From Nemertoderma westbladi (Eukaryota > Animalia > Xenacoelomorpha), in assembly GCA_032718475.1 (NCBI GenBank), contig JAUCBJ010008768.1:1-38113 (forward strand): DNA of 38,113 bases. Reading direction: 5' to 3'. A model generated the notes under the pieces. It worked only from the letters and a program-made list of their open reading frames with translations. It searched no databases and was not told the origin of the DNA. Positions 1,048 to 38,113 of the stretch are shown in pieces; the first letter of the stretch is position 1; every line of letters starts with the position of its first letter. The translations under genes and the position numbers were made by a program.

Positions 1048-1660
1048 GGTACTGGAGGTGGACCACCGGTTCCGCAACCCCCCGTTTATGTCATGAAGAT
1101 GTTCGAAATAATTCAACGTTCAAGTGGCGATGTAATTTTTGGTATAGGATCTGGGGCGGAGTGTGGTGGATCTAACACTACTGACTACTGGTAATGATAT
1201 TCGCGAAAAATAAAATATTCCGACCGATACCTCCAGCCCAGCACCAGTTAGTGCAGAAACCGATCCTGGTAGATCGATCATAGATCACACATCCGAATCT
1301 ATTGCGGCCAAACGCATTTGTGCCGCCGGGGTAAAATCGACGGAGACCGCTCTAGATCTTCAATTGGTTCAACAGAAGTTGTTAATGATAAAAGAAAACC
1401 GGTATTTAATTTACCTTAAGACGTTAAAGGCCAAAGAAGAGATGAGACGATTGAATCTTGTGATTCCAGATCCTCAAATGTTTACGTTGGATGCTTCAGC
1501 TGTTGAGACTTCAGGAGTTGGAGATGAAGATAACGGATGTAGGCCTATACTAGAGGATCCTCCAGTAATCTCAATTGGCGAGAATGCCGAGGTAATGTTT
1601 GTTGACAACAACCTGGCTCGAAACTTTCTTCATCAGATTACTTTGTTAAATGATAAATAA
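1048..1660 (+). pseudogene. C-terminal part of a Harbinger Myb/SANT-like DNA-binding protein (NAIF1/MSANTD-like), frameshifted
   Basis: GTGGGPP at 1048-1068, then in a shifted frame YVMKMFEII...VIFGIGSGAE. This is followed by a coiled-coil-like and acidic ORF (1364-1660). It lies tail-to-tail with the transposase. Confidence 0.6.
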
Positions 1661-2479: not shown

Positions 2480-3773
2480 ACACTAGAAAGAAGTGATTCC
2501 TGCTTACTGGTGTTGTAGTGGTTCTGTGTCGTGGCTCTTGTGGTTGTAACTGCGGGTGAAGTATACTTTTAGGAAATTTCCTTGAATAAACATATTTCCG
2601 GAAAACTCACATCCCTAATCAAGTTGTGCAAAATCGCGCATTAAGCAATGATGCGACATACACGCTCAGGACTCATTCTCATTTTTCCACCAAGGCAATG
2701 GAATCTCCGCTTAAGTACACCAAAACTTCGTTCTATCACATTTCTAGTAGATTTATGTGATTTATTATATCGCTCTTTAGAAACGTTAGCGGGTACTAGC
2801 AGCAGCGGTGTCAGTAACCAACAGCGGTTCGCGTAACCACTGTCTCCTAGTAGAATACCTCTACGTCGGCCTGATTCAAAATCCATCCCAATCCTGCTGT
2901 TCTTCAAAATTCTAGAATCGTGTACGCTGCCGGGCCAGTCTGCCACTATATCTAAGAATTTACCATCTGCATCACAGATAGCCTGCACATTGATGCTATA
3001 TGTAGTAGCCATGCCTGTTGATGTAATAACTACTCTGATCTCCACATGGAGCTTGAATTTCTACATGGGTGCCATCGACTGCACCCACTACTCCTGGAAA
3101 TCCAGCGACTAAAAAAAAGTTTTCTTTGAGTTTCAGGAGACCTTCTTCGTTTCTTGGCATTTGGACAAATTCGTTTATGTGTTTAATTAAAACATTCGTC
3201 ACACGATAAATAGTTTTACTAATAAATTCTACATTGCGCAATCTTTAGGCTGGCTGTCAATCATCAAGTTGGCCAACCAATTATAATTAGTAACACTTCA
3301 ATATCTGCTATATCTAGTAGAGTGGCTCAAGTTGGTACCAAGTTAATAAAATATCTTCAGCACAAATTGGTCGCATTCGAAATCAGCATTGGTTTATTGT
3401 TTTGGTTAGAAAACACAGCCACTGTAACATGCCCCTCTCCTTCAATATTTTACATTCTTTTTTTAAACCTAATAAATACAAATTGTTTGTCTATTTATCT
3501 ATATATTTTTGCCGCGGGTTGTTCTAGAACATTAACATATATGTCAATATCTCCATAAAAATAGCTAGTAAAAAAATTCAAAATGAGGAGGAATATTCCA
3601 ATATTCCAGGAATATCCCAATATTTTACAGAGGATTTAAAATGCCCTGTAGTGGCTCCGTAGGTACCGCTCTTAAAATTCAGTATCGTTATATACTTGTA
3701 GTGGGTTGAGTTTGATGTTGTTTACTCTCGATTTTCGTCGATGCCTATTTATAACAACTGGAACAAAAGCCAT
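2480..3773 (-). pseudogene. HARBI1-like (DDE_Tnp_4) transposase pseudogene
   Basis: N-terminus MAFVPVVINRHRRKSRV..NPLQVYNDTEF*ERY from ATG at 3773. Core motifs GFPGVVGAVDGTHV, SINVQAICD, WPGSVHDSRIL, LLGDSGY, R-NVIERSFGVLKRRF, then IIA*CAILHN. It carries in-frame stops, a frameshift near 3000-3045, and unrelated sequence at ~3240-3660 in place of the HTH region. Confidence 0.9.
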
Positions 3774-5069: not shown

Positions 5070-5623
5070 CCTTACACCTGCGCAGTGGATAGTGTGAAAG
5101 CCGCCTTACACCTGCGCAGTGGATGGTGTGAAATCCGCCTTACACCTGCGCAGTGGATAGTGTGAAAGCTGCCTTACACCTGCGAAGTGGATAGTGTGAA
5201 AGCCGCCTTACACCTGCGCAGTGGATAGTGTGAAAGCCGCCTTACACCTGCGCAGTGGATGGTGTGAAATCCGCCTTACACCTGCGCAGTGTATAGTGTG
5301 AAAGCTGCCTTACACCTGCGAAGTGGATAGTGTGAAAGCCGCCTTACACCTGCGAAGTGGATAGTGTGAAAGCCGCCTTACACCTGCGAAGTGGATAGTG
5401 TGAAAGCCGCCTTACACCTGCGCAGTGGATAGTGTGAAAGCCGCCTTACACCTGCGCAGTGGATGGTGTGAAATCCGCCTTACACCTGCGCAGTGTATAG
5501 TGTGAAAGCTGCCTTACACCTGCGAAGTGGATAGTGTGAAAGCCGCCTTACACCTGCGAAGTGGATAGTGTGAAAGCCGCCTTACACCTGCGAAGTGGAT
5601 AGTGTGAAAGCCGCCTTACACCT
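5070..5623. repeat. 34-bp minisatellite, 16 units, with higher-order structure
   Basis: Unit CCTTACACCTGCGCAGTGGATAGTGTGAAAGCCG; variant order A B C D / A B C' D D D / A B C' D D D. Confidence 0.95.
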
Positions 5624-5849: not shown

Positions 5850-6420
5850 AATTATCGTTATATCCAGTGAACAAGTGAAGGATTCAATCATGGCTCTAAA
5901 CAAAAACAAGGCTGCCGACTATTTTAAGTTGAAGGCGGAACATCTAATTTATGGTCTGTCTGATACACTTTGAGACTACCTGGCATTTGCTTTCAATACC
6001 ATGAGAGCAACTGCAACATGTCCAAAAGCACCTGGTGAAAAATTGGTCATCCCAACCTTAAAAGATTTACATCGAAATAAATATCAACAAAAACCAGTTA
6101 TGACCAATATCTATTGTAATGCTGATTGCGAAGGTTTTGGAACTACTTGTGTCTTGGGAACTTCATTAACCCTGGATCTTAAAATTAATGACCTATAAAT
6201 GGGCTATAGGAAAAACATTAAGTACTGGACTGACATATGCTACGGTCAAGAGCCTGAGTGATTTGTTCAATAAAAAGGGTTCCGATATTTATATGTTAAC
6301 TTTAGATCTTACCGCAGCATTTTATACGGTGAGTTCTGTGAAACTCTTTCAAAAGCTAGGCCAATCGGGAGTAGAGACAAATCTCCTAAAATCACTCAAG
6401 AACTACTATATGGTCAAATG
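5850..6420 (+). pseudogene. Degenerate LINE reverse transcriptase fragment
   Basis: ISSEQVKDSIMALNKNKAAD..LKAEHLIYG (pre-RT domain 0) and IYMLTLDLTAAFYTV..KLFQKL (RT domain 3-like), broken by stops and frameshifts. Confidence 0.75.
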
Positions 6421-6451
6421 GTCATCTGAAAAACTATCAAGACATGACCAT

Positions 6452-6673
6452 AACATGTTAGCTATTTATTTTTTAAAAAAAATTATGTTCTAGAACAAAT
6501 ATTTTTTGTTCTATAACATTTTTTAGAAAAAAAATCTGGATTCTATTTAAAACGCATGGAATCGTTCTAAAACGTGTTTTAAATAGAATCCAGATTTTTT
6601 TCTAAAAATGTTCTAGAACAAAAAATATTTTTTCTAGAACATAATTTTTTTTAAAATAAATAGCTAACATGTT
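6452..6673. repeat. AT-rich hairpin/foldback (~100-bp arms) of the GTTCTAGAAC/TAGCTA dispersed family
   Basis: 6452-~6553 is nearly the reverse complement of ~6575-6673, with a loop of ~20 bp. Related arms lie at 28330-28450 and 28950-29075. Confidence 0.85.
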
Positions 6674-8129: not shown

Positions 8130-8329
8130 CGATGTTAGGACAATTGCGACCCGGTCAATTGCGACCCGGTCAATTGCGACCCGGTCAATTGCGACCCGGT
8201 CAATTGCGACCCGGTCAATTGCGACCCGGTCAATTGCGACCCATGATTTTAGAAAAAATTTATGGGTCGCAATTGACCGGGTCGCAATTGTCCGGGTCGC
8301 AATTGTCCGGGTCGCAATTGTCCGGATCC
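8130..8329. mobile_element. Small foldback MITE built of 15-bp repeats
   Basis: 7 copies of CAATTGCGACCCGGT (8141-8242), a ~20-bp AT spacer, then 4 inverted copies (8264-8322). No clear TSD. Confidence 0.75.
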
Positions 8330-8628
8330 AGATAAAAAGATTTAATGTATATCATTGATAAAAATCATTGTATCATTGTGACTAATGTGAAGAATGGCAA
8401 CGATACGGAGGGTGCGATTTCCCAAAAGACACTTTTTTATAACGCTGATAAAAAAAAATTATAGGCAAAATAAAAAATTATGGCTTCATGCGGACATCGA
8501 CGGTGAGTTGAACAAGTTGTGATTCAAATTTCAAGCAATATAATAATAGCAATAATATATTCAAGTTTATAAGAAGTAATGTACATATGAAATAATGTAA
8601 AGATCTATACAGACACTAAATATACCTA

Positions 8629-10255
8629 ATGTGTATCAAACTTTCATCGAATAGTCGTTGTAACTTGGTTATTATCTGCTCAGTACTCTGTGGCCTGATT
8701 GGAGTATGGGCCATCGGTATGATTGTGTTCGGACTCTATGTCAACTTCAATGTTGTGCGAGGGACACACCTTATTCGCGATTACAATGCTCGTTCCTTTA
8801 TCGGGCTCATTCTATCCATAGGAGGTATTAACTGTATCACTACAATCATTGGATTCGTAAGTCTGTTTAGATACATCAATGAGAACAAAATTCGAGGGTT
8901 CACCAACGAATTACCCAGTCTTAAGTTGTTGAAGAGTTACCATATTAACCTTGTAATCATCACATTGTGGTTTCTCTACTTTGTGACTTGTTGGTTAACT
9001 TTAGCTGTCGCTATAACTTCATTAACTCATGTAGATGAGGTCGAGAGAGCTTTCAATATCGGCATAACGCACGCCATCACGGTATACATGAAGGACGTTG
9101 GGGCGAAAGTGGACATAGATGCGTTTGCAGGTAGATTTTGAGTGCTGCGGTAGCAATAATTACAGCGATTGGTTGGATATAGAGTGGGCAGATAAAGGAA
9201 ATTATATGATGCCATTCAGCTGTTGTAATTCGTCGGTTTTACGGCCATGTGTTTTAGAAGTAAACAATCAAACAACTAACTTGACGATTTTTTACCAAGA
9301 AGGGTGCATGCATAAACTTCGGGAATATTGGGAGCTACGGTTGGGCCCATTCGCTATTCTCGCATTCATAATGTTCATGACACAGGCGGGTCTCGCAACA
9401 TCGCTCCGATATCTCCAGACATCGATCCACAGCGCGTTGAAGCGAAGAAGTTGGAGAGAACCGTCCAGAGGTTATCTTCTTGCCACCCCTGGAGCCGAGG
9501 TATCTGTGCAGGTAAAGGCGACGAAAATCGAAGGGGAAGTAGTCGAATTGGAACTGTTGGTGAGCGGAGATCCATTGGTTGAAAATAGTGACATTAATAC
9601 TGGGGATGAAGATAAAGTGGCTGATTTTAAGCTGGAAGAGTGCGCGGCACCTAAACCATCCCCAACATCTACAAGTCATAAGGGCGCCCAACCAGCTCGT
9701 AACAACCCTACAACACCCCCTTTACCTAATAGCATCCCCGAATCACCCACTCAACCCATTAACATCCCAACACCAACCCCTTTACCCAATAGCATCCCCG
9801 AATCACCCAGTCAACCCATTAACAACCCGACACCACCACCTTTACCCAATGGCATCCTCCAAGCACTCCCTCCACCTGCAGACATCCCGCAACCACACCC
9901 ATCACCCACCAAACACCGGCTAACAGATCCTAACATTCCGCAATCACCTCGTGTATCCTCTAACAACAACCCTACATCGCCATTATTGTCTCACTACCAA
10001 AAAAAACCCGCTGCCATCGTTCCGGTATTGCCCCCTGCACCGCCTGTTGGTAAAATGCCCGGCACTCTTCGCACAGAGATCAAGGACATTAATAAAGATT
10101 TAAAACCAAAAGAGGAGCAGAAGAAAGAGTATGAACAATTGGACAATGAGCGAGACTCACTTCTTCACAAGACAATACAATCCCGGAGATACGCACATGG
10201 GGCATCCAGTGAGACATTACTTGATAATGATGAGGATGAGGTATCGTTTAGTTAA
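8629..10255 (+). CDS. PRPH2: Intronless peripherin-2/ROM1 (RDS)-family tetraspanin with a proline-rich, WCA-like C-terminal extension; one 1-nt frameshift at 9124-9126 (~541 aa if corrected)
   Basis: Three hydrophobic helices lie in ORF 8629-9141 and TM4 in ORF 9119-10255. Large-loop motifs ID.LQ.DFECCGSNNYSDWLDIEW, PFSCCN...RPC and GC are present, with the post-TM4 LRYLQTS...SRGYLL signature typical of PRPH2/ROM1. Deleting one T in GCG TTT GCAG joins the two ORFs. The symbol denotes the family, not proven orthology. Confidence 0.85.
9701..9890 (+). repeat. Coding 60-bp (20-aa) tandem repeat, 3 units plus a partial one
   Basis: NNPTTPPLPNSIPESPTQPI / NIPTPTPLPNSIPESPSQPI / NNPTPPPLPNGILQALPPPA starting at 9701, 9761 and 9821. 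Confidence 0.9.
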
Positions 10256-11599: not shown

Positions 11600-14110
11600 A
11601 AATTAAAACTATACTAAAAAAGACAATAAAAGGAGAGGGTACAAGTTAATTTAAATTCGGCATCTCAGGTAACTATCGTATACCTGAGATCCGTTAAAAC
11701 ATATACAGCTAGTATTAATTAAAATATAATTTTGCGAGTTGGTAACACGATTAAATAAACTAAATAGTGAAAAGCGTCGGATATGTACAATTGATTTAAG
11801 GCCAAGAGAGACCAGCATACCACTAGCACTGTCATCGCGTTTAAAACCAAATAAACGTCGCACTGTGTTGTTATACGCTACATTTAATCGATTAAGGCCC
11901 CCCTCACACGGAGCAACTTGTTTCTGCAACTTGTTTCTGAAACTTGTTGCTGGACCCCCTCACACACAGAAACTTGTTGCTGCAACTTGTTTCCGAAACT
12001 TGTTTCTGTGTGTGAGGACTCCAGCAACAAGTTTCTGCAACTTGTTTCCGCAACTTATTTCTGTGTGTGAGGGGGTCCAGCAACAAGTTGCTGGAAGTTA
12101 TATTCCCAGCAACTTTTTGAAAAACTTTTATTACATTCCATTTTGATACTAGCTAATATTAGATAATTTGAGTGATTTGATATTATATACAAATGACTGG
12201 ACATGTTAGCTATTTATTTGGAAATAATTGTTATTTTCTTCAGCAACAAGTTTCTGTGTGTGAGGGGGTCCAGCAACAAGTTGCTGAAACAAGTTGCAGC
12301 AACAAGTTTCTGTGTGTGAGGGGGTCCAGCAACAAGTTGCTGAAACAAGTTTCGGAAACAAGTTACAGAAACAAGTTGCAGCAACTTGTTTCTGTGTGTG
12401 TGGGGGTCCAGCAACAAGTTGCTGAAACAAGTTTCGGAAACAAGTTGCTGAAACAAGTTGCAGCAACAAGTTTCTGTGTGTGAGGGGGTCCAGCAACAAG
12501 TTGCTGAAACAAGTTTCGGAAACAAGTTACAGAAACAAGTTGCAGCAACTTGTTTCTGTGTGTGAGGGGGTCCAGCAACAAGTTTCAGAAACAAGTTGCA
12601 GCAACTTGTTTCTGTGTGTGAGGGGGTCCAGCAACAAGTTTCAGAAACAAGTTGCAGCAACTTGTTTCTGTGTGTGAGGGGGTCCAGCAACAAGTTTCAG
12701 AAACAAGTTGCAGAAACAAGTTGCTCCGTGTGAGGGGGGCCTAAGAGTTGACTCACAAAAATAGCTGTCAGCCCAAAGAGCATTACAATAAACATTAGAG
12801 CAATAAGAAATAAACAATTGTAGCTTTACATGGGGAGAGCAGTGAAGTTCCTGAAGGTCCTAATAAGCAAATTAGCACGTGCGTAAAAAGATCTAGTTTG
12901 GTTCCTAATATCAGTATCATCCGAGAAATTAGATGTGATATAGTGACCGAGACATTTATATTTAGGAACACATTCAAGCACAACACTGTCCAATACGATC
13001 ATTGTATTAGAAATTGTTAAACGGTGAGAACTGTGTAAAAATTTACATTTAGATTTCTTAGCATTAAATGTAATGGAGTTGCAATACGCATAATCAGAAC
13101 AAATGTCAACAAGTGATTGTAAGGCACTAGGCGACGTAGATATAAGACATATATCATCCGCATAAAAATAATGATTGACAACTACATATCCAAGTCGTGC
13201 GCCGAGCACACAGCTAGATAATTGTACACTTAATTTATCATTATATAGATTGAAGAAGTAAGGAGCCAATATGCTTCCCTTTGGAGCAGCCATAGGGATA
13301 AAGGGACTAAAATAAATATTAAGACGATTAGATGAATATAAAATGTGCTCAGAATAAATAAAATCATGTTCTGCCGCCTTATTTAACTTTAGCTCATTGA
13401 TAGCGGTAGTAATTTCATTAGGAGACACAAGCATATCAATACTAAATTGCACATTGGAAACTGCAGCATATACCCGTTACGAGTCGGGTGACTGGTCCGG
13501 TTTAACTTAATTAAATATAGATTCATATTTGTTGGCCGACATTCCGCATACTTCAGCGGATCCAACTGCATCATCCGCCGTGTTAGGCGGTGTAGAACGT
13601 GTGGTTGACTGAGATTTAACATTATTCCAGAATTTCTTGCTGTCCCTGTCCTCGCTAGATAATGACTCAACTAGACGGTTGGATCGAGTCTGAGACTCTG
13701 CCTTTCTACACTGACGGAGTGCCAGCTTAAACTGCGCCTTCGCCTTGAGAACCTGTTGGTGCAGCAATCCAGACTTCGGACTTCCAAGTTGTCGCCACAG
13801 CAAAAACAGCTCCCTTGAATGAGAATACTTGGAACGAACCATCTCGTTCCAACCAGGAATGTGTTTGTGCAGCCTGAGTGGTTATCTCGAAGATTAATGG
13901 TTTGGGGAATTGTGTCACAGAGTCTGCAGACCGCATAGCATTCACAATATCATTGTAAAATTTATCAATGTTGGCAGTGTGTTGTGAACAGTTTGCAGTA
14001 GTGCAATTGATGGCAGACCATGGAACTGGTACTTTCCGCAGAAGTTCATCGCACTTATCAACATAGGCAAGTTTAACTTTATCAGTAGCCTTTGACCAAA
14101 TCTTACTGTT
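11600..14110 (-). mobile_element. 5'-truncated, internally deleted LINE (RTEX/L2-like ORF2 remnant) interrupted by a MITE
   Basis: PGWNEMVR..SRELFLLWRQLGSPKSG..FKLALRQC, LKLNKA..IYSEHI, KGSILAPYFFNLY, YADD, KYKCLG, FYARANLLIRTF and VAYNNTVRRLFG..SASGM. Multiple stops and frameshifts; RT domains 1-3 are missing. Confidence 0.9.
11896..12741. mobile_element. PIF/Harbinger MITE with internal TIR-derived tandem arrays
   Basis: Long perfect TIRs starting GGCCCCCCTCACACGGAGCAACTTGTTTCTGCAAC, with TAA at 11893-11895 and 12742-12744. The interior is made of CAGCAACAAGTT / TCTGTGTGTGAGGGGGTC modules. Confidence 0.92.
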
Positions 14111-25379: not shown

Positions 25380-26199
25380 GATTATTAATCAACACAAAAC
25401 AAAACAAAACAAAATTTACAAATAGAAAACCCACCACCACACAAAATTAATATGTAAAATATATCATCTCAGAACTGGTCTGCTAGCCCCACGCCACGCA
25501 GACCGGCCCCATCTCCGAACCCCAATCCCCGCCACAACCGTCGCCCACCCCGGAGGCAGAAAGAGCTGGACCGGAGGAGTGCGAACTGCAGTCGCCGTCG
25601 AACACCCCCGAGCACGCACGCGAGGCCCCTCTCTCGCATACCATCTCGCCTCGCCACGAGTGTCTCGGCGATATGGCCGATAAGGATCTGGGCCTCGGTG
25701 CTCCAGACACCATTGGTGGTGCCGACCAGAGGGGTGAAGGACATCCTCCGGTCTTCGCAGACGGTCCGGTAGTGCAGCTTCTTGAGCCGACACCGCTGCT
25801 CCAGGATGGACTCAGTCAAGCGGTTGGCCTGGGCGTAAGAGGTGGCGTCAGCGTTTACTACCGCGATATCGAACGACGCCACTCTCTGGTTTGCCCAGAC
25901 CCCCGAGCGACCAAGTCCGCCCGCACTCCCCCTACCTCCCGACCCTCTCTGTCGAGGTATCCCCGGGATAGGGTCACCTCACGTTCTACACTGGACGTCC
26001 CAAACGCCGACGCCAGCAGGTCCCCAAAAACGTCACGCACCTCGTCGTGACGTTTCACAATGAGGCCGCCGGACTTGCAGCTGAGTGCATGGGAGGTTGA
26101 GAACGGCCCCCCACAGCCCTCGCACTTGGACGGGAGTCCTGGCGGGACGAGGCCGTACCGGAGGTTCAGGCTGTCCCGGTACTCCTCCGCACTGAGGTT
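25380..26199 (-). mobile_element. 5'-truncated CRE/SLACS-clade non-LTR retrotransposon (zinc knuckle plus restriction-like endonuclease)
   Basis: LSAEEYRDSLNLRYG..LPSKCEGCG.PFSTSHALSCKSGG..KRHDEVRD..RADLVARG.W..QRVASFD..EQR..K..HY..C..FTPLV. One frameshift lies in a G-run near 25900-25904; the stop is at 25469. GC-rich, and flanked on both sides by TA-rich tracts. Confidence 0.88.
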
Positions 26200-26874
26200 A
26201 GCTTAATATATTTATATATAAATAAATATTTATTATAAATATATTTATAAATAGTTTGAATATTTAGTAGTAGTAATTAAAGGAATTATGGGAAATGCCA
26301 AGCCTAACAAACAAAAGTGTCACAAAGCATCGCAATGCCCTGCCTTTCTTCTTCAATTTGATTTATTGTATGATTAAATTTATTTTCGTGAGCTCAAGTA
26401 ATTTAACTTTTAAATAATGGTATTTAACGCTAAAGCAATAATGAAATTCAAAAAGTATGACTTCTTTATCTGCTGATCGAGGTATTCTGGAATGTAGTGA
26501 GCAAGCCTTGTATTACGATGGCCTTGCTTATGGAATTGGTTTCCGGAGCGGGATTCACCAACTGTTGATATTTTCATGAATAGGATATTAAATACAGACC
26601 TGTTAACATGTTGGAGTTTTAATAGATATATCAAACTAAACTTTAATTTACTAATTAACTAACTATTACTTAATAAATAGGCCTACTTATTATATTTTAA
26701 GTGCTTTTATGTTTTGATTAATCATTTATGGATTAACTTTTACTTTCGGTTTATTTTATTTGTAATTTAGCTTAATTACTATAACGAATATGGACATATC
26801 GAATATCGAATAGGGACCTCGTGTAAGCGCACAGCTTCGGTCAGGTCTTCCCTCTATATTTATTGTGTGTTAAG

Positions 26875-27080
26875 TATATCCGTATTTTTGTATATCCGTA
26901 TTTTTGTATATCCGTATTTTTGTATATCCGTATTTTTGTATATCCGTATTTTTGTATATCCGTATTTTTGTATATCCGTATTTTTGTATATCCGTATTTT
27001 TGTATATCCGTATTTTTGTATATCCGTATTTTTGTATATCCGTATTTTTGTATATCCGTATTTTTGTATATCCATATTTT
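26875..27080. repeat. 16-bp minisatellite, ~12.5 near-identical units
   Basis: Unit TATATCCGTATTTTTG. Confidence 0.95.
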
Positions 27081-28329
27081 ACTTTACTTTTGGGAAAAAC
27101 TTTAATAAAATACTCTCTACACCAACCATACGTGTGTCTATAAAGAAATATGTATGTATATTATAATATAGTTTAACAACGAGATTGCCACTATTAAAAT
27201 GGGAAGCAGTCAACAATTTAATTACTTAATCAAAATACAAGAACTCAAGACAAGACAAGTCACTACAAGAACAAAATGTAGCCACGGACGAAACTATATG
27301 AACAAAATGTCGACACGGGCGGAACTTCAACCTTTTATAGACTTTTATAGACAGTTACCATGTTATTTTAAACTTTCTAGAACACTTGTTAGCAGATACA
27401 GGAGTACAATTATTGGCGGGCGATATTAATCAATCTATTAAATTGAACAGTAGGCCTAAATAACCGGTGTTTAAATAGTAAAAAATGTGTAGCCAAGATT
27501 GATAAAAGACAAATACCCTTGAAATTAAAATCATACTTATTTACGAAAAAATGTTATTATAGCTGCATATAATTTAAAAAACCGGCACTGTTCGATAATG
27601 GTCACCCAATTTTGAAATTTTACTAAATGTCTTAAATACAATATTATCTTTTGTTCTAGAACTAATATTTGACCTTCTGACAGTAGGATGGTAGCTAGTA
27701 ATTTTGATTTTGTTTTAGCTACCGGCAGTATTTTTTATTAGCTAGTGAAAACAATTAAAATTTAAGATTTTTTTTTTTAAATAGTCCAATTTTTTCTAAT
27801 GAAAATGACTTTAATCATCATTTTTTGTTCTAGAACTAATATTTTACATTCTGACAATAAGATGGTAGCTAATAATTTTGATTTTGTGTTAGATAGAAAC
27901 ATGTATTGTGTCAAAAATAAGTCCCAGAACAAACATCGGTATTAGTATGGTATGTATAAGCAAAAATTGAAAATTTTAATATGACATTTATAGTATATTT
28001 AGGCCTATATTCTGGTCTCATATTTTGTTTATTGTTAATAGCTACTATGTGTATGTACTACTTAATCATTTTTATTAGCTAGTGTACTAATTTAATAGCT
28101 AATTTATCTACAGTAGGATATTCAATTATTAGCTAGTTACATTGCGTTTTTTCATTAGTTTGGTAGTTTATTTAGTTTATTTGATTTTCTATTTGGTGTC
28201 TTTGATGACATTTACAGTTACATGTCAAAGAAGATTGTGTCAGAGTTTATTTAATACCGGTAATTGTTTTAGCATTGTAACCACAATTGTCTCGGGCACT
28301 ACTACAGTATGTGTACCCATGACCATATT

Positions 28330-30959: not shown

Positions 30960-33670
30960 AATTATAGCATAATACATATAGTCGCATAGTTACATACAAT
31001 CACATATAGTTAAATAATATGTTAATACAGCAAATAAGCACAGGGAATAGGAGCACAAATAGTATTTAGTTCGACATAAGTTATGTAATTGCAAGTATGG
31101 GTATTGGTGGGCATGCGGCACATTGTAGTACATGATATCGCTGTGGGCAAGGTAGTAAACAGTAGCTGCAGTAGCAGAGTGGTGAAAGTGTGTGGAAAGG
31201 CTTTTCGTTTGTACAGAGTTTATGGTAAAAACCGTGGTCGGTCGTCCTGACAATGATGTGTCGGTTTGTCTGTTTGGCCAGTTTCCATGTAGATGTAGTA
31301 AATGACGGTCCCATTTCGTAGAGTTCAGAAAGAAAATTATTTTCTCGGTCCTGTCTAAATTCATGGTATTTTTCAATTACACCAGTGTCAAAAATGGTTG
31401 GATATTTTAGTAAAATGTCAGCAATGAATGTTTTCTCCCTGAGTAGGTGCAGCGCCAACGTCGATGAAGCTGATATATATAGACATATATAGATATACAG
31501 CATTCTCTTTATGTGTGTTGTTTTAATTCGGTCTATTTCCTTTAGGTGTGAGAGCTTAAGAAAACGAGCGAATATGGGAAAGGCATATAGGGCAATGGGT
31601 GCAATTTTCATGTGAAATATTCTTAGACCTGTTTCAATGGAAACGAGCTGCAAGTTTGTTATTGATGCAATAATCCTATAGCACTTTTTCTTTTTCGATT
31701 TTATGTGTTCACTGAAGCTGAGTGAAGTTTGTACTGTTACCCCCAGATATTCATACTGGTTGCAGATTGGTACGGTTTGACCCCCGTAAGTAAAGTTATC
31801 AGTACAAGCTAGGTGGCCTCCTTTGCGAAATTTAATTATCTTTGTCTTGTCCATATTAACTTCCATATTATTGTTTATACACCAGGTGTGAGTTATTTCA
31901 AACAAGTCATTTCCTATCCTCTAGGTTAGCTGATTGTAAGGCTGTGGCTATGAATGTAAGTAAGATTTGTATGGCGTGGGAACAAGATCTGCTAGGTCTG
32001 AATCCGAACTGCTCGTCAGGAAAAAGTTGTGAAACAAACAAACGTGCACGAGTATTCATTATGGAAGTAAACGTTTTTAACAGAACTGAAATCCCCCTAA
32101 TAGATATTGGGGTTGTTTATTGCTCCCTTCCCTTTGTAAAGAATCATAATGAGGCTTTCTTTCCAAATAAGCGGTATCCGTCCTAAGTTGAGACACGCGT
32201 TGTATAAAGTCACCAGTATCGTTAGGATAAACGGAATTATTAATTTAAGATGCTCGTAGTAAATCCCGTCTAAACCATTGGATTTCCCATTTGCGGAATT
32301 GTTAATGCTGGCTGTAATTTCATCTTCTGTTATAGGCGAGTTAAACCATTGTTCATCTTGTCGTTCCTCAACAGAGGTTGAAGGAATGGTTGGCGGGTTT
32401 GGGGGGTCAATGGCGGCTCCGACTAAGTTTTGAAAGTGAACCGGGAGTGTGGCTGAGTCAATGGGCGCGACTGTCCGTTTATGCTTCTTGAAAATTAGCC
32501 ATGGCTTGGTCTCAGAACGATCTATCAGAGCCAGTAGCATTTCCTCGCTGTGTGCCTCGCGTTTTCCTTTTATTAACGATTTATATTGTTTGCGAGTATC
32601 CCAGTTGTAGTACTGCTTGTGGAGATCAGAGTTATTTCTAGAACGCATTGCAGAAACCAGTTGGCCTTTACGAGTCCTGCACTCTTGGTCGAACCAAGGT
32701 TTGCCAGAGCGAGAAGGTTTTTTAGCAGGTGTTGAGTCGGTTATTGTCTGAGTTAGTATGTCGGTTGCCCCATTGATATCTGAGCGGTTTAGTTGTTCCT
32801 GTACTGTATGTAGGTTTGGGTGAGTCCGAAACCTTTCTATATCAATTTTCCGAGATAATTGTGGTCTCTCAACAACAGTGCGTGGGTGGGGGAAGTGTAT
32901 ATTAGAGAGTTCTAAAACTGCAGAGACAGCCTGGTGCTTTCGTACTGGATTATTTACAACAGTTGCTTCGGGAAGTATCTGTGGGACTATGCCTGGGTAT
33001 TTAATAAAAATAAGGTCAATAGTGCTTTCCCCCTGGGGAGAAATGTATGTAGAAACATCCGGATTGTTTAAACAAAGGAAACCTGACATTGTGCAGTTCG
33101 TCGGATAGCTCCGTACCGCGAGTGCCGGAGTCCAACCGGCAGTTAAAATCCCCTGAGATAATATTGAAAGGCTGGGGTCCGTGTGAGAGAGGGTGTCATA
33201 TATTGTTAGAATAATTTCCTCCAGAGGGATGTCAGGCGGTAAATAGAGAACGATAAAATATGCGATTAATGTTTTGATAATGATGTATGTAGCAGCCTGC
33301 TTGATGCTGGAAGGATTTAAATGCGATTTGCATAAAACCATAAGACCCCCCGATGGACGTCCCCTAGTTGGTTTGACAGCTGCCTCTGAGAAGCAGTAGT
33401 AATTGGTGGCGTAATGTGAGACATCAGTGTATAGAGTTTCAGTCAGGAGCACTACATCTGCGTTGCTATAAAGTTCAGAGTCGGTCAGAGTGTCTGCTAA
33501 ATATCGAAGTCCCTCCACATTCCATAATCGAACACATACCTTTGTGCTCCGATCCTAGTCCCTGTTGCTAATCTCCGTATTCCTCTGTGTATTTCCTCCA
33601 TCCGTGTTACCGGAACTCTCGCGTTGTTGAAGACGCAACTCCTGTTGGTCTTGTTCACTGAGTCGATAGT
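30960..33670 (-). mobile_element. LINE (APE endonuclease + RT + C-terminal Cys/His domain) with the end of ORF1; defective
   Basis: WNVEGL, LLTET, GRPSGGL, YLPP, out-of-frame GDFN, STIDL, KPWFDQEC, GLDGIYYEHLK, LYKGKG..NP, EQFGFR, then a jump to WC..N.MEVNMDKTK..FRKGG, YEYLGV and HGFYHKLC..CYCSYC..HVLQC. The RT catalytic core is absent. Confidence 0.93.
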
Positions 33671-33733: not shown

Positions 33734-34113
33734 CTAGTGGGGAGGAGTACGGAACTAGTGGGGAGGAGTACGGAACTAGTGGAGAGGAGTACGGAACTAG
33801 TGGGGAGGAGTACGGAACTAGTGGGGAGGAGTACGGAACTAGTGGGGAGGAGTACGGCACTAGTGGGGAGGAGTACGGAACTAGTGGGGAGGAGTACGGA
33901 ACTAGTGGGGAGGAGTACGGAACTAGTGGGGAGGAGTACGGAACTAGTGGGGAGGAGTACGGAACTAGTGGGGAGGAGTACGGAACTAGTGGATAGGAGT
34001 ACGGAACTAGTGGGGAGGAGTACGGAACTAGTGGGGAGGATAACAGAACTAGTGGGGAGGAGTACGGAACTAGTGGGGAGGAGTACGGAACTAGTAGGGA
34101 GGAGTACGTAACT
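33734..34113. repeat. 21-bp G-rich minisatellite, ~18 units
   Basis: Unit CTAGTGGGGAGGAGTACGGAA. Confidence 0.95.
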
Positions 34114-34234
34114 ATTTTTAGATACTATTTTTTTTAAATGTAGCTAGCAGATATAGCTAATATTCTAAAAAAATATTTTCAGTGTTGCTTAAACATTAAC
34201 ATCAATAACATAATACCAAAAAATAAAAATTAAA

Positions 34235-35261
34235 ACAAAATGTAGCCACGGGCGGAACTATAAGAACAAAATGTAGCCACGGGCGGAACTATAAGTACAA
34301 AATGTAGCCACGCGCGGAACTATAAAAACAAACAAAATGTAGCCACGGGTCGAACTATATGAACAAAATGTAGCCACGGGCGGAACTATAAGAACAAAAT
34401 GTAGCCACGGGCGGAACTATAAGTACAAAATGTAGCCACGCGCGGAACTATAAAAACAAACAAAATGTAGCCACGGGCGGAACTATAAAAACAAACAAAA
34501 TGTAGCCACGGGTCGAACTATATGAACAAAATGTAGCCACGGGCGGAACTATAAGAACAAAATGTAGCCACGGGCGGAACTATAAGTACAAAATGTAGCC
34601 ACGCGCGGAACTATAAAAACAAACAAAATGTAGCCACGCGCGGAACTATAAAAACAAACAAAATGTAGCCACGGGTCGAACTATATGAACAAAATGTAGC
34701 CACGGGCGGAACTATAAGAACAAAATGTAGCCACGGGCGGAACTATAAGTACAAAATGTAGCCACGCGCGGAACTATAAAAACAAACAAAATGTAGCCAC
34801 GGGTCGAACTATATGAACAAAATGTAGCCACGGGCGGAACTATAAGAACAAAATGTAGCCACGGGCGGAACTATAAGTACAAAATGTAGCCACGCGCGGA
34901 ACTATAAAAACAAACAAAATGTAGCCACGGGCGGAACTATAAGTACAAAATGTAGCCACGCGCGGAACTATAAAAACAAACAAAATGTAGCCACGGGTCG
35001 TACTATATGAACAAAATGTAGCCACGGGCGGAACTATAAGAACAAAATGTAGCCACGGGCGGAACTATAAGTACAAAATGTAGCCACGCGCGGAACTATA
35101 AAAACAAACAAAATGTAGCCACGGGCGGAACTATAAGTACAAAATGTAGCCACGCGCGGAACTATAAAAACAAACAAAATGTAGCCACGGGTCGAACTAT
35201 AAGAACAAAATGTAGCCACGGGCTGAACTATAAGTACAAAATGTAGCCATGGGCGGAACTC
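34235..35261. repeat. 31/35-bp minisatellite, ~32 units, with a 128-bp higher-order repeat
   Basis: Unit ACAAAATGTAGCCACGGGCGGAACTATAAG(A/T). Four variants (31+31+35+31 bp) recur in order. A degenerate two-unit copy is at ~27265-27326. Confidence 0.95.
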
Positions 35262-37095: not shown

Positions 37096-37386
37096 TTGGC
37101 TTACAATTGTTTGATTCATTTGTATTGTGCTATATTCAGTGATTTTATGCTATGCGATTATTGAATACAGTCGAGTTAAATAAATCTTCAAAACAAATTG
37201 CATTATACAGTACACGCCTATTTCGTTCTTTTCGGTTCTTTTGGGTGTTTTGGGGTTCTTTTGGGTAGTTATTTTTGGTTCTATTGGGTTCTTTTTGGTT
37301 CTATTGGGTTATTTTGGGTTTTTTTTTAAACCATGTGACATCCATAACTCCTACGCATGCCACTACCTTAAACAATTTATAACGTA

Positions 37387-37859
37387 CGGTGGCTGATTAT
37401 TTCAATTTTTTCAATGTTTTTCACCCGGGTGAAAAACCTTTGTCATCCCGGTAAACCCGGGTATTATATTTATAACTGTTATTAATATAAATGAAGTTTG
37501 ATTGATCGTTTTGTGTAGCCTCATCCAATTTAAATATTCATTCATTCATTCCACACCCCCCCCCCCCCCCCCCCCCCCCCCTGCCATATATGTCCAGTAA
37601 TGGAAATAATCTAAGTATTATGCTTAAATATTATTCTTAAGTTTGTAATATTTTGTTGCTTGATTCATAAATAATAAGTACTGTGACTGTGACTAGTGAC
37701 TTAATTATATGGATCTAATACCCTTCCTCCCTCCCGCCATGAACGAGTGAAAAGGATTTTCACAGGGGTGAAAAGGGATTTTCCTCCGGGTAATAAATGT
37801 ATTTCACCCGGGTGAAAAAAATTAAAAAGGTGAAAATAATTAGCCGCAATCAGCCACCG
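37387..37859. mobile_element. Tc1/mariner-type MITE (473 bp)
   Basis: TIR CGGTGGCTGATT / AATCAGCCACCG flanked by TA on both sides. Subterminal palindromes TTTCACCCGGGTGAAA lie at both ends, and there is an internal poly-C tract. Confidence 0.7.
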
Positions 37860-37937
37860 TAATAACGACATATTCAGGCCAACAGTACAATACATAACAT
37901 GAAATAATCTAAATTAACAAAAAAAAACAACTACAGT

Positions 37938-38113
37938 ATGTATCTATTACGTTTCAATTTAACTTCAAAGAGTCGTTTGAAGTTAGTTACCTTGTGCAAG
38001 GTATTATGCGGCAATATTGGGGTATGGGCAATCGGTACGATTGTGTTTGGACTCCATGTAATGTTCGGCAATGGGCGAGCCAAAGATATGACCACAACCG
38101 ATTATGATGATGG
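37938..38113 (+). CDS. 5' end of a second peripherin-2/ROM1-like tetraspanin (runs off the window)
   Basis: Open frame MYLLRFNLTSKSRLKLVTLCKVLCGNIGVWAIGTIVFGLHVMF..., with 26 of 40 residues identical to the N-terminus/TM1 region of the 8629 gene. Confidence 0.85.
   Translation, partial: MYLLRFNLTSKSRLKLVTLCKVLCGNIGVWAIGTIVFGLHVMFGNGRAKDMTTTDYDD

Follow-up and report, generated by a model that had tools for sequence, protein, structure and literature searches.

A probable diverged paralogue of an intronless peripherin-2-like tetraspanin gene at the edge of a 38-kb genomic window

Introduction

Is the short reading frame that is cut off by the end of this stretch of DNA the beginning of a second gene, and if so, how old is that gene, how did it arise, and how large is its family? 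We analyzed the whole stretch of 38,113 nucleotides (the window). It is animal-type genomic DNA with LINE reverse-transcriptase fragments, a Harbinger-type DDE_Tnp_4 fragment and many tandem arrays, and its only recognizable host gene, the frame at the edge aside, lies at 8629-10255 (copy 1). The initial annotation proposed that the window ends in an RDS-like paralogue of that gene (copy 2), formed by tandem duplication at the DNA level and possibly part of a local expansion. With a probability of roughly 0.68, we read copy 2 as the 5′ end of an old, diverged paralogue of 8629-10255 that is likely intact, likely arose by local DNA duplication and is likely one of at least three family members.

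Results

Reading frame and family of copy 1

Copy 1 is an intronless RDS/peripherin-2-like gene (8629-10255, + strand) of 541 codons if a one-base break is not real. In the window, the gene is split into ORFs of 170 and 378 residues, and the break falls in a run of three T at 9124-9126 (+ strand), just before the LQ..F.CCG segment. We compared the window with public contigs from runs X1, X2, X3 and X4, of which X1 and X2 are the same sample. Contigs of X1, X2 and X3 have one letter fewer at 9124-9126 (three of three covering runs; X4 has no cover there), and hence the frame of copy 1 is open in those runs. We conclude that the break is most likely an assembly error in the T run or a private allele. 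A programmed frameshift is unnecessary, since the frame is open in all three covering runs.

Read through the break, the 268-residue core of copy 1 scored 77 bits on the Pfam Tetraspanin profile (PF00335; gathering cutoff, 32.1). Peripherin-2 (E, 5.6e-12) and ROM1 (E, 4.7e-9) were at the top of its nine matches among PDB sequences. For the AlphaFold model (mean pLDDT, 81.7; pTM, 0.78), a fold search ranked PRPH2-ROM1 chains first, and these were the only two of 449 matches at an E of ≤0.001. Sequence and predicted model together give four TM helices, a short EC1 and a long EC2. The cysteines and landmarks of EC2 (C172 C173 G174, D180 W181, P195-C199, C207, and G225 C226) fit the RDS pattern CCG--[DN][WY]--PXXCC--C--GC, given as 6-cys-a in Table 1 of PMC2965184.

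Among named proteins, those nearest to copy 1 are peripherin-2-like and come from molluscs, a brachiopod, echinoderms, hemichordates, amphioxus and vertebrates, with identities of 22 to 33%. The core of copy 1 aligns to its relatives without any gap that would require an intron. No close relative of copy 1 was found by HMMER with the C-terminal ORF over 1.84 billion representatives (91 matches; best, 55.5 bits), and a word-seeded search with the core left 0 of 292 candidates at an E of 0.001.

Copy 2 at the right edge of the window

The last 176 bases of the window (37938-38113, + strand) are the 5′ start of copy 2. As initially described, an ATG at 37938 begins a frame that stays open to the window edge; its 58 codons cover the cytosolic N-terminus, TM1 and EC1 of an RDS/peripherin-2-like tetraspanin, with TM1 the only TM helix of copy 2 inside the window. 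Copy 2 is indeed missing from the ORF track, which lists ORFs of at least 80 aa, for the trivial reason that the edge cuts it after 58 codons. It lies on the same strand as copy 1, and the distance between the two starts (37938 − 8629 = 29,309) agrees with the reported spacing of 29.3 kb.

The best ungapped 40-residue window between the two proteins has 26 of 40 identities, exactly as claimed. Ungapped over the whole piece, 28 of 58 residues are identical, and blastp against copy 1 read from 8620 gave 30/57 identities (E, 1e-16), which upholds the homology of the two copies. Self-blastn of the window gave a single match between the two loci, 8647-8741 against 37965-38059 (95 nt, 74.7%; E, 6e-11). 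Copy 2 has no stop or indel across the first 47 aligned codons, at a dS of 0.7. At 8620, copy 1 reads ATA in place of the ATG of copy 2, and its own start lies three codons further on. The Met of copy 2 is in register with the family start, and copy 2 keeps the invariant Arg, the sole invariant column of that region. Judged from this alignment, the family start ATG is kept in copy 2 and lost in copy 1.

Family membership and constraint of copy 2

We scored both copies on an N-terminal profile made from the first 66 columns of 20 relatives and built without either copy. Copy 2 scored 13.7 bits, a value as high as which was reached by none of 1,000 shuffles (965 scored; best, 8.0), and copy 1 scored 33.7 bits. 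Similarly, hhalign placed residues 1-43 of copy 2 on profile positions 2-44 (E, 5e-4). The 58-aa piece alone had no Pfam match. In a quick tree of 50 rows, in which copy 2 fills 17% of the columns, copies 1 and 2 are sisters (SH-aLRT, 95) on their own long branch. In this same tree, which has long branches, both fall within a 37-row RDS-like group (SH-aLRT, 97). A search for metagenome contigs with copy 2 gave 511 pattern matches, none of which was confirmed.

Identity between the copies is 33/44, 37/44 and 21/44 at the first, second and third codon positions. The initial annotation had suggested computing dN/dS; over four ranges, dS was 0.69 to 0.82 and dN was 0.26 to 0.35, for a ratio of 0.38 to 0.50. 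The bootstrap interval of pN/pS was 0.37 to 1.08, and 4.2% of resamples reached 1. By these measures, copy 2 is an old paralogue whose divergence is biased to silent sites. Of the 26 columns in which the copies differ, 18 place copy 1 closer to the relatives, 6 place copy 2 closer and 2 are ties (P = 0.023), a comparison that may be slightly biased since the relatives were found using copy 1. On this count, copy 2 has drifted further from the family than copy 1. The hydrophobicity of TM1 is 1.74 in copy 2 versus 2.55 in copy 1, and TM1 of copy 2 contains polar residues. Given divergence biased to third positions together with the 18-to-6 drift, we consider constraint on copy 2 likely and weaker than that on copy 1; the 44 codons would be compatible with recent decay, too.

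Upstream motif and flanks of the two copies

The initial annotation noted a shared motif upstream of both starts. We found it at 8582-8601 for copy 1 and at 37891-37913 for copy 2 (both + strand), with 19 matches, 1 mismatch and one 3-nt gap. It is an AT-rich sequence of 20 to 23 nt that lies 30 to 47 nt before the start codon. Its score was equalled by 28 of 5,000 dinucleotide shuffles, 10 of 2,163 window tiles and 9 of 401 AT-rich tiles. The motif is probably homologous and modestly above chance, and weak when taken alone. The 9-mer ATGAAATAA occurs in just these two places in the window, both strands having been checked. Each motif contains ATG-AAA-TAA (start-Lys-stop), at 8587-8595 in copy 1 and at 37899-37907 in copy 2, and as a minimal upstream ORF this occurs in the window at 8587 and 37899 only. 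It is in frame with the main ORF at both loci, and because of its stop, neither main ORF reaches further upstream.

Self-blastn of the window left no further flank homology between the two loci. A high-copy MITE-like element at 37385-37861 (no strand assigned) ends 76 nt before the ATG of copy 2 and is not common to copy 1. It has 14-nt perfect terminal inverted repeats, beginning and ending in TA, and long imperfect inverted arms, over both of which the summed contig depth is in the thousands. Copy 1 is preceded by a high-copy repeat of another kind, which ends near 8546. A short unique stretch is thus all that remains before each start, and for this reason the motif common to both is a candidate for a core promoter or 5′UTR signal. 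At 8141-8325, also upstream of copy 1, there are 15-nt tandem arrays in inverted orientation (6.8 and 4.1 copies), followed by the high-copy repeat.

Other sequences in the window

Fragments of a Harbinger/PIF-type DDE_Tnp_4 transposase lie at 2641-3241 (− strand) and 1364-1660 (+ strand) (E, 8e-25), and a convergent 98-aa ORF beside them may be the partner gene. Broken LINE elements, with endonuclease and reverse-transcriptase fragments, are found at 31081-33518 (− strand), 12826-13842 and 6188-6493. A 137-aa ORF at 25469-25882 (− strand) has no Pfam match; we take it to resemble the C-terminal, restriction-like endonuclease end of CRE/SLACS-type retrotransposons. Minisatellite arrays occupy 33734-35260, 5070-5623, 11899-12738 and 26874-27080, with periods of 21, 31, 34, 56/82 and 16, and the 31-nt unit recurs at 27262-27330.

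Public contigs run beyond the window edge and indicate a third paralogue

The part of copy 2 inside the window is covered by one contig each of X1 (1,634 letters; depth, 39.8) and X2 (1,630 letters; depth, 24.9). Both contigs cover 37834-38113 with no listed coding difference from the window, and they differ from each other in the upstream A-run. They run 1,352 letters past 38113, or 1,528 letters from the ATG in both, with room for about 700 letters after TM4. X3 and X4 have no cover of the 5′ part of copy 2. In both X1 and X2 the copy 2 contig is unbranched, at about half the depth of the merged contigs of copy 1. A hint of presence/absence variation, or of a single dose of copy 2, might be read from this; holes and contig depth are no proof here.

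An X2 contig with a mean depth of 24.9 matches copy 1 at ≥85% in three ordered patches: 8829-8886 (TM2), 8980-9047 (TM3/helix A) and 9391-9441 (the RYLQTS segment after TM4). Exactly these three patches reproduce the depth-bin means of copy 1, and the contig has no 85% match in the copy 1 tail. X3 has a low-depth contig with a second joint identical to that of the 24.9 contig. This contig is likely the continuation of copy 2, a link made through the equal depth figure. The copy 2 contig of X1 (depth, 39.8) gives no match at those copy 1 patches, which counts against the link. An X1 contig of depth 60.2 is likewise without an X2 counterpart, so such dropout does occur. In the contigs, within the limits of this comparison, there is no sign of the frame collapse just past 38113 by which the initial annotation would have been refuted.

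Contigs of depth 50.8 (X1) and 31.4 (X2) match copy 1 at about 8692-8788 and 8973-9017 (≥85%). They cannot be copy 2, because copy 2 is only 52/69 identical over 8692-8760 and falls further after that; they are closer to copy 1 than copy 2 is. The 60.2 contig matches 9009-9055, the CCG loop (9128-9174) and 9470-9497 of copy 1 at ≥85%; it could continue the third locus or mark a fourth one. Since these contigs are distinct from copies 1 and 2, we conclude that there are at least three family loci, and the proposed expansion beyond two members is borne out by the third paralogue in the public contigs. Between copies 1 and 2 we found no family remnants with the profile on 1,234 six-frame peptides; only the three known pieces were below an E of 2.7.

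The tail of copy 1

The proline-rich tail of copy 1 includes a 60-nt tandem repeat of 2.6 copies (9700-9857, + strand). It is followed by a module at 9861-10248 (+ strand) that consists of a proline-rich stretch, a predicted helical segment and an acidic end and that is in tandem in some contigs. X1, X2 and X3 each have a contig passing from 10248 back to 9861 with 17 letters between. The repeated unit is therefore 388 + 17 = 405 letters, or 135 codons, in frame, and the junction has no stop (by hand). The single-unit form is found in X4 (one 1,075-nt contig) and in part of X1, as in the window. We conclude that the module is repeated in some alleles or near-identical copies. That the unit spans exactly the proline-rich/acidic module lends mild support to its being a functional unit.

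The initial annotation had called this tail “WCA,” a label that we could not establish. The last 70 residues, viewed by eye, presumably resemble WH2 and C segments. Pfam WH2, a short motif of a kind often missed, was not matched in the tail at E values of up to 10, and none of the five weak PDB matches of the tail was a WASP-family chain. The C-terminus has 5 acidic residues in its last 12 and a Phe second from the end. The last 266 residues of copy 1 contain no tryptophan; WASP-family members, as described in PMC7112243, have a Trp third from the C-terminus.

Tails of this kind are common in the subfamily. With the query itself excluded and some near-duplicate rows retained, 74 relatives had a delimitable tail; it is at least 150 residues long in 25 of them, and in 11 a stretch of 60 tail residues holds 15 or more prolines. 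In five invertebrate peripherin-2-like proteins (P0108, P0110, P0114, P0122 and P0026), long tails combine runs of polyproline with repeats of an acidic Tyr motif (PIYENI type), which suggests that such tails serve in signaling within the subfamily. Proline-rich tails could dock SH3/EVH1/profilin-type partners.

Discussion

The claim that copy 2 arose by tandem duplication at the DNA level holds in part. The shared strand and the 29.3-kb linkage favor it; the upstream motif, put forward as its evidence, is weak, being short and within 5′UTR distance. Since the motif lies 30 to 47 nt before the start and possibly in the 5′UTR, retroposition would copy it as well, and it is not decisive. Linkage and orientation are the better argument for local DNA duplication. 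A recent segmental duplication is ruled out by the absent flank homology and a dS of 0.7. The copies might instead have become adjacent through independent retroposition or transposon-mediated capture: the core of copy 1 has no intron, while RDS/ROM genes carry introns as described in PMC2650405, the shared motif is within 5′UTR distance, no flank is common to both copies, and each copy lies directly behind an unrelated repeat. We regard this as quite improbable. Two independent insertions 29 kb apart on one strand would be unlikely, inspection by eye shows no poly-A tract after the copy 1 stop, at a dS of 0.7 one would expect any flank homology to be gone, and a single ancestral intron loss followed by tandem duplication accounts for the same facts. 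Less probable by far is an assembly artefact, in which copy 2 would be an uncollapsed haplotype or a false duplication of copy 1. The window does contain at least one likely error, in copy 1, and long homopolymer runs. However, the copies differ at about 25% of nucleotides with a bias to third positions, they are on separate contigs within the same runs X1 and X2, and contigs matching copy 1 deviate by only a few letters in 100; the divergence pattern and the separate contigs refute an artefact. The likely origin is local DNA duplication of an already intronless gene.

The most serious competitor of a functional copy 2 is a relaxed or decaying duplicate, whose apparent constraint would be left over from the copy 1 branch and from its own earlier life. 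The 18-to-6 excess of departures from the family, the polar residues and lower hydrophobicity of TM1, the profile score of 13.7 versus 33.7 bits, a pN/pS interval that reaches 1, and a transposon-like insert ending 76 nt before the ATG all speak for it. We nevertheless consider it unlikely, because the first 47 aligned codons have no stop or indel at a dS of 0.7, the family ATG, lost from copy 1, is still present in copy 2, the contigs of X1 and X2 show no coding difference from the window even though they differ in the A-run upstream, and the likely continuation keeps 85% patches at conserved segments. A further alternative, to which we give distinctly less credence, makes the family, copy 2 included, a set of tetraspanins with a true WH2-C-A module as a fusion part, through which they would activate Arp2/3 or bind G-actin on the membrane that they themselves shape. 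The order of the copy 1 tail (proline-rich, a presumed WH2-like segment, a second helical segment, an acidic end), its in-frame tandem repetition in some contigs, and the roughly 700 letters left after TM4 in the copy 2 contigs would suit such a fusion, as would the need of vertebrate disc formation for WAVE-driven Arp2/3 described in PMC10041111. Against it stand the absence of Pfam WH2 at E values of up to 10, five weak PDB matches without a WASP-family chain, 266 terminal residues without the Trp that PMC7112243 places third from the end in the WASP family, proline-rich tails in 11 of 74 relatives, and a 24.9 contig without an 85% match in the tail. A related picture, doubtful on the same scale, is a lineage-specific, fast-evolving, intronless peripherin-2-like family in which at least one member has a built-in actin module (proline-rich, WH2-like, acidic) with a unit number that differs among individuals, and copy 2 is a ROM1-like partner. 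Equally speculative is the analogy by which one polypeptide would unite PRPH2 (membrane rim) and PCARE/WAVE (actin push), which are split in vertebrate photoreceptors. Any such tetraspanin with an actin module concerns copy 1 more than copy 2.

We conclude that copy 2 most likely belongs to a small expansion of invertebrate peripherin-2-like genes, as a paralogue that has diverged and is functional. Its frame would then be open through TM2-TM4 and the CCG loop. By analogy with PRPH2 and ROM1, the products would be four-pass membrane proteins that pair non-covalently via the large extracellular loop. Non-covalent dimerization would follow from the lack of a C150 loop, whose role in PRPH2 is described in PMC9645710. 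The paired products may act as scaffolds of curved membrane in ciliated cells, either photoreceptors or sperm, with copy 2 as the putative faster-evolving partner. The cytosolic tail of copy 1, which is proline-rich and varies in length, may be disordered and serve for docking, and we do not regard it as a proven activator of Arp2/3.

Copy 2 is mostly a case of ordinary gene duplication within a known family, and the paralogue is unannotated. The annotation is worth correcting, both for copy 2 and for the likely false frameshift in copy 1. The invertebrate peripherin-2-like proteins are known as database entries, and no paper on their function was among the matches listed; similarly, no paper was found that combines “tetraspanin,” “WH2 domain” and “peripherin.” Should the tail module bind actin, the family would offer a direct test of tetraspanin/branched-actin coupling before or outside vertebrate discs, and the one-unit and multi-unit forms that occur naturally could serve directly as a dosage series.

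Comparison with known systems

Like PRPH2/ROM1/RDS2 (the RDS subfamily of PF00335; PDB 7zw1), copy 1 has four TM helices, six EC2 cysteines and the DW..W, PFSCC..RPC and RYLQTS segments, and copy 2 has its N-terminus and TM1 in register with the invariant Arg kept. Identity to PRPH2/ROM1 is about 24%. According to PMC9645710, C150 of PRPH2 is a free cysteine in the AB loop that serves disulfide-linked oligomers. Copy 1, like 19 of the 20 aligned relatives, has a gap in place of this five-residue loop. The vertebrate extended EC2 with h1/h2 turns is also absent from copy 1, in which the insertion from DW..W to PFSCC is about 20 residues shorter; there are 8 residues between W186 and P195, and most relatives have at least 25. 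In contrast to vertebrate RDS/ROM genes, which have introns, the core of copy 1 is intronless, and copy 1 differs from PRPH2/ROM1 in its 270-residue proline-rich tail. Copies 1 and 2 are linked, unlike vertebrate PRPH2 and ROM1, and are not whole-genome ohnologs.

The invertebrate proteins listed as “peripherin-2-like” or “photoreceptor outer segment membrane glycoprotein 2-like” (from Lingula, Mizuhopecten, Argopecten, Saccoglossus, Ptychodera, Patiria, Diadema, Lytechinus, Branchiostoma and Owenia) have the same core and the same absence of the C150 loop, and often long low-complexity or proline-rich tails, as copy 1 does. They are only 22 to 33% identical, copies 1 and 2 being on their own long branch, and they lack the His-rich stretch that follows RPC.

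The tail of copy 1 resembles WASP-family WCA factors (WAVE/WASF3, WASP, WASH, WHAMM, JMY and WHIMP) in being proline-rich, with a putative helical segment and an acidic C-terminus; it differs from them in having neither a WH2 profile match nor a terminal Trp and in being carried by a four-pass membrane protein. In vertebrates, membrane scaffolding is paired with WAVE-driven Arp2/3 actin at the cilium, as described in PMC10041111 (see also PMC7211956). In Caenorhabditis elegans, PMC10411975 describes the claudin-like membrane protein HPO-30, which binds the WAVE complex and F-actin through a disordered tail. HPO-30 belongs to a different family, with no homology claimed, and sets a precedent for the steering of actin by the disordered tail of a multi-pass membrane protein.
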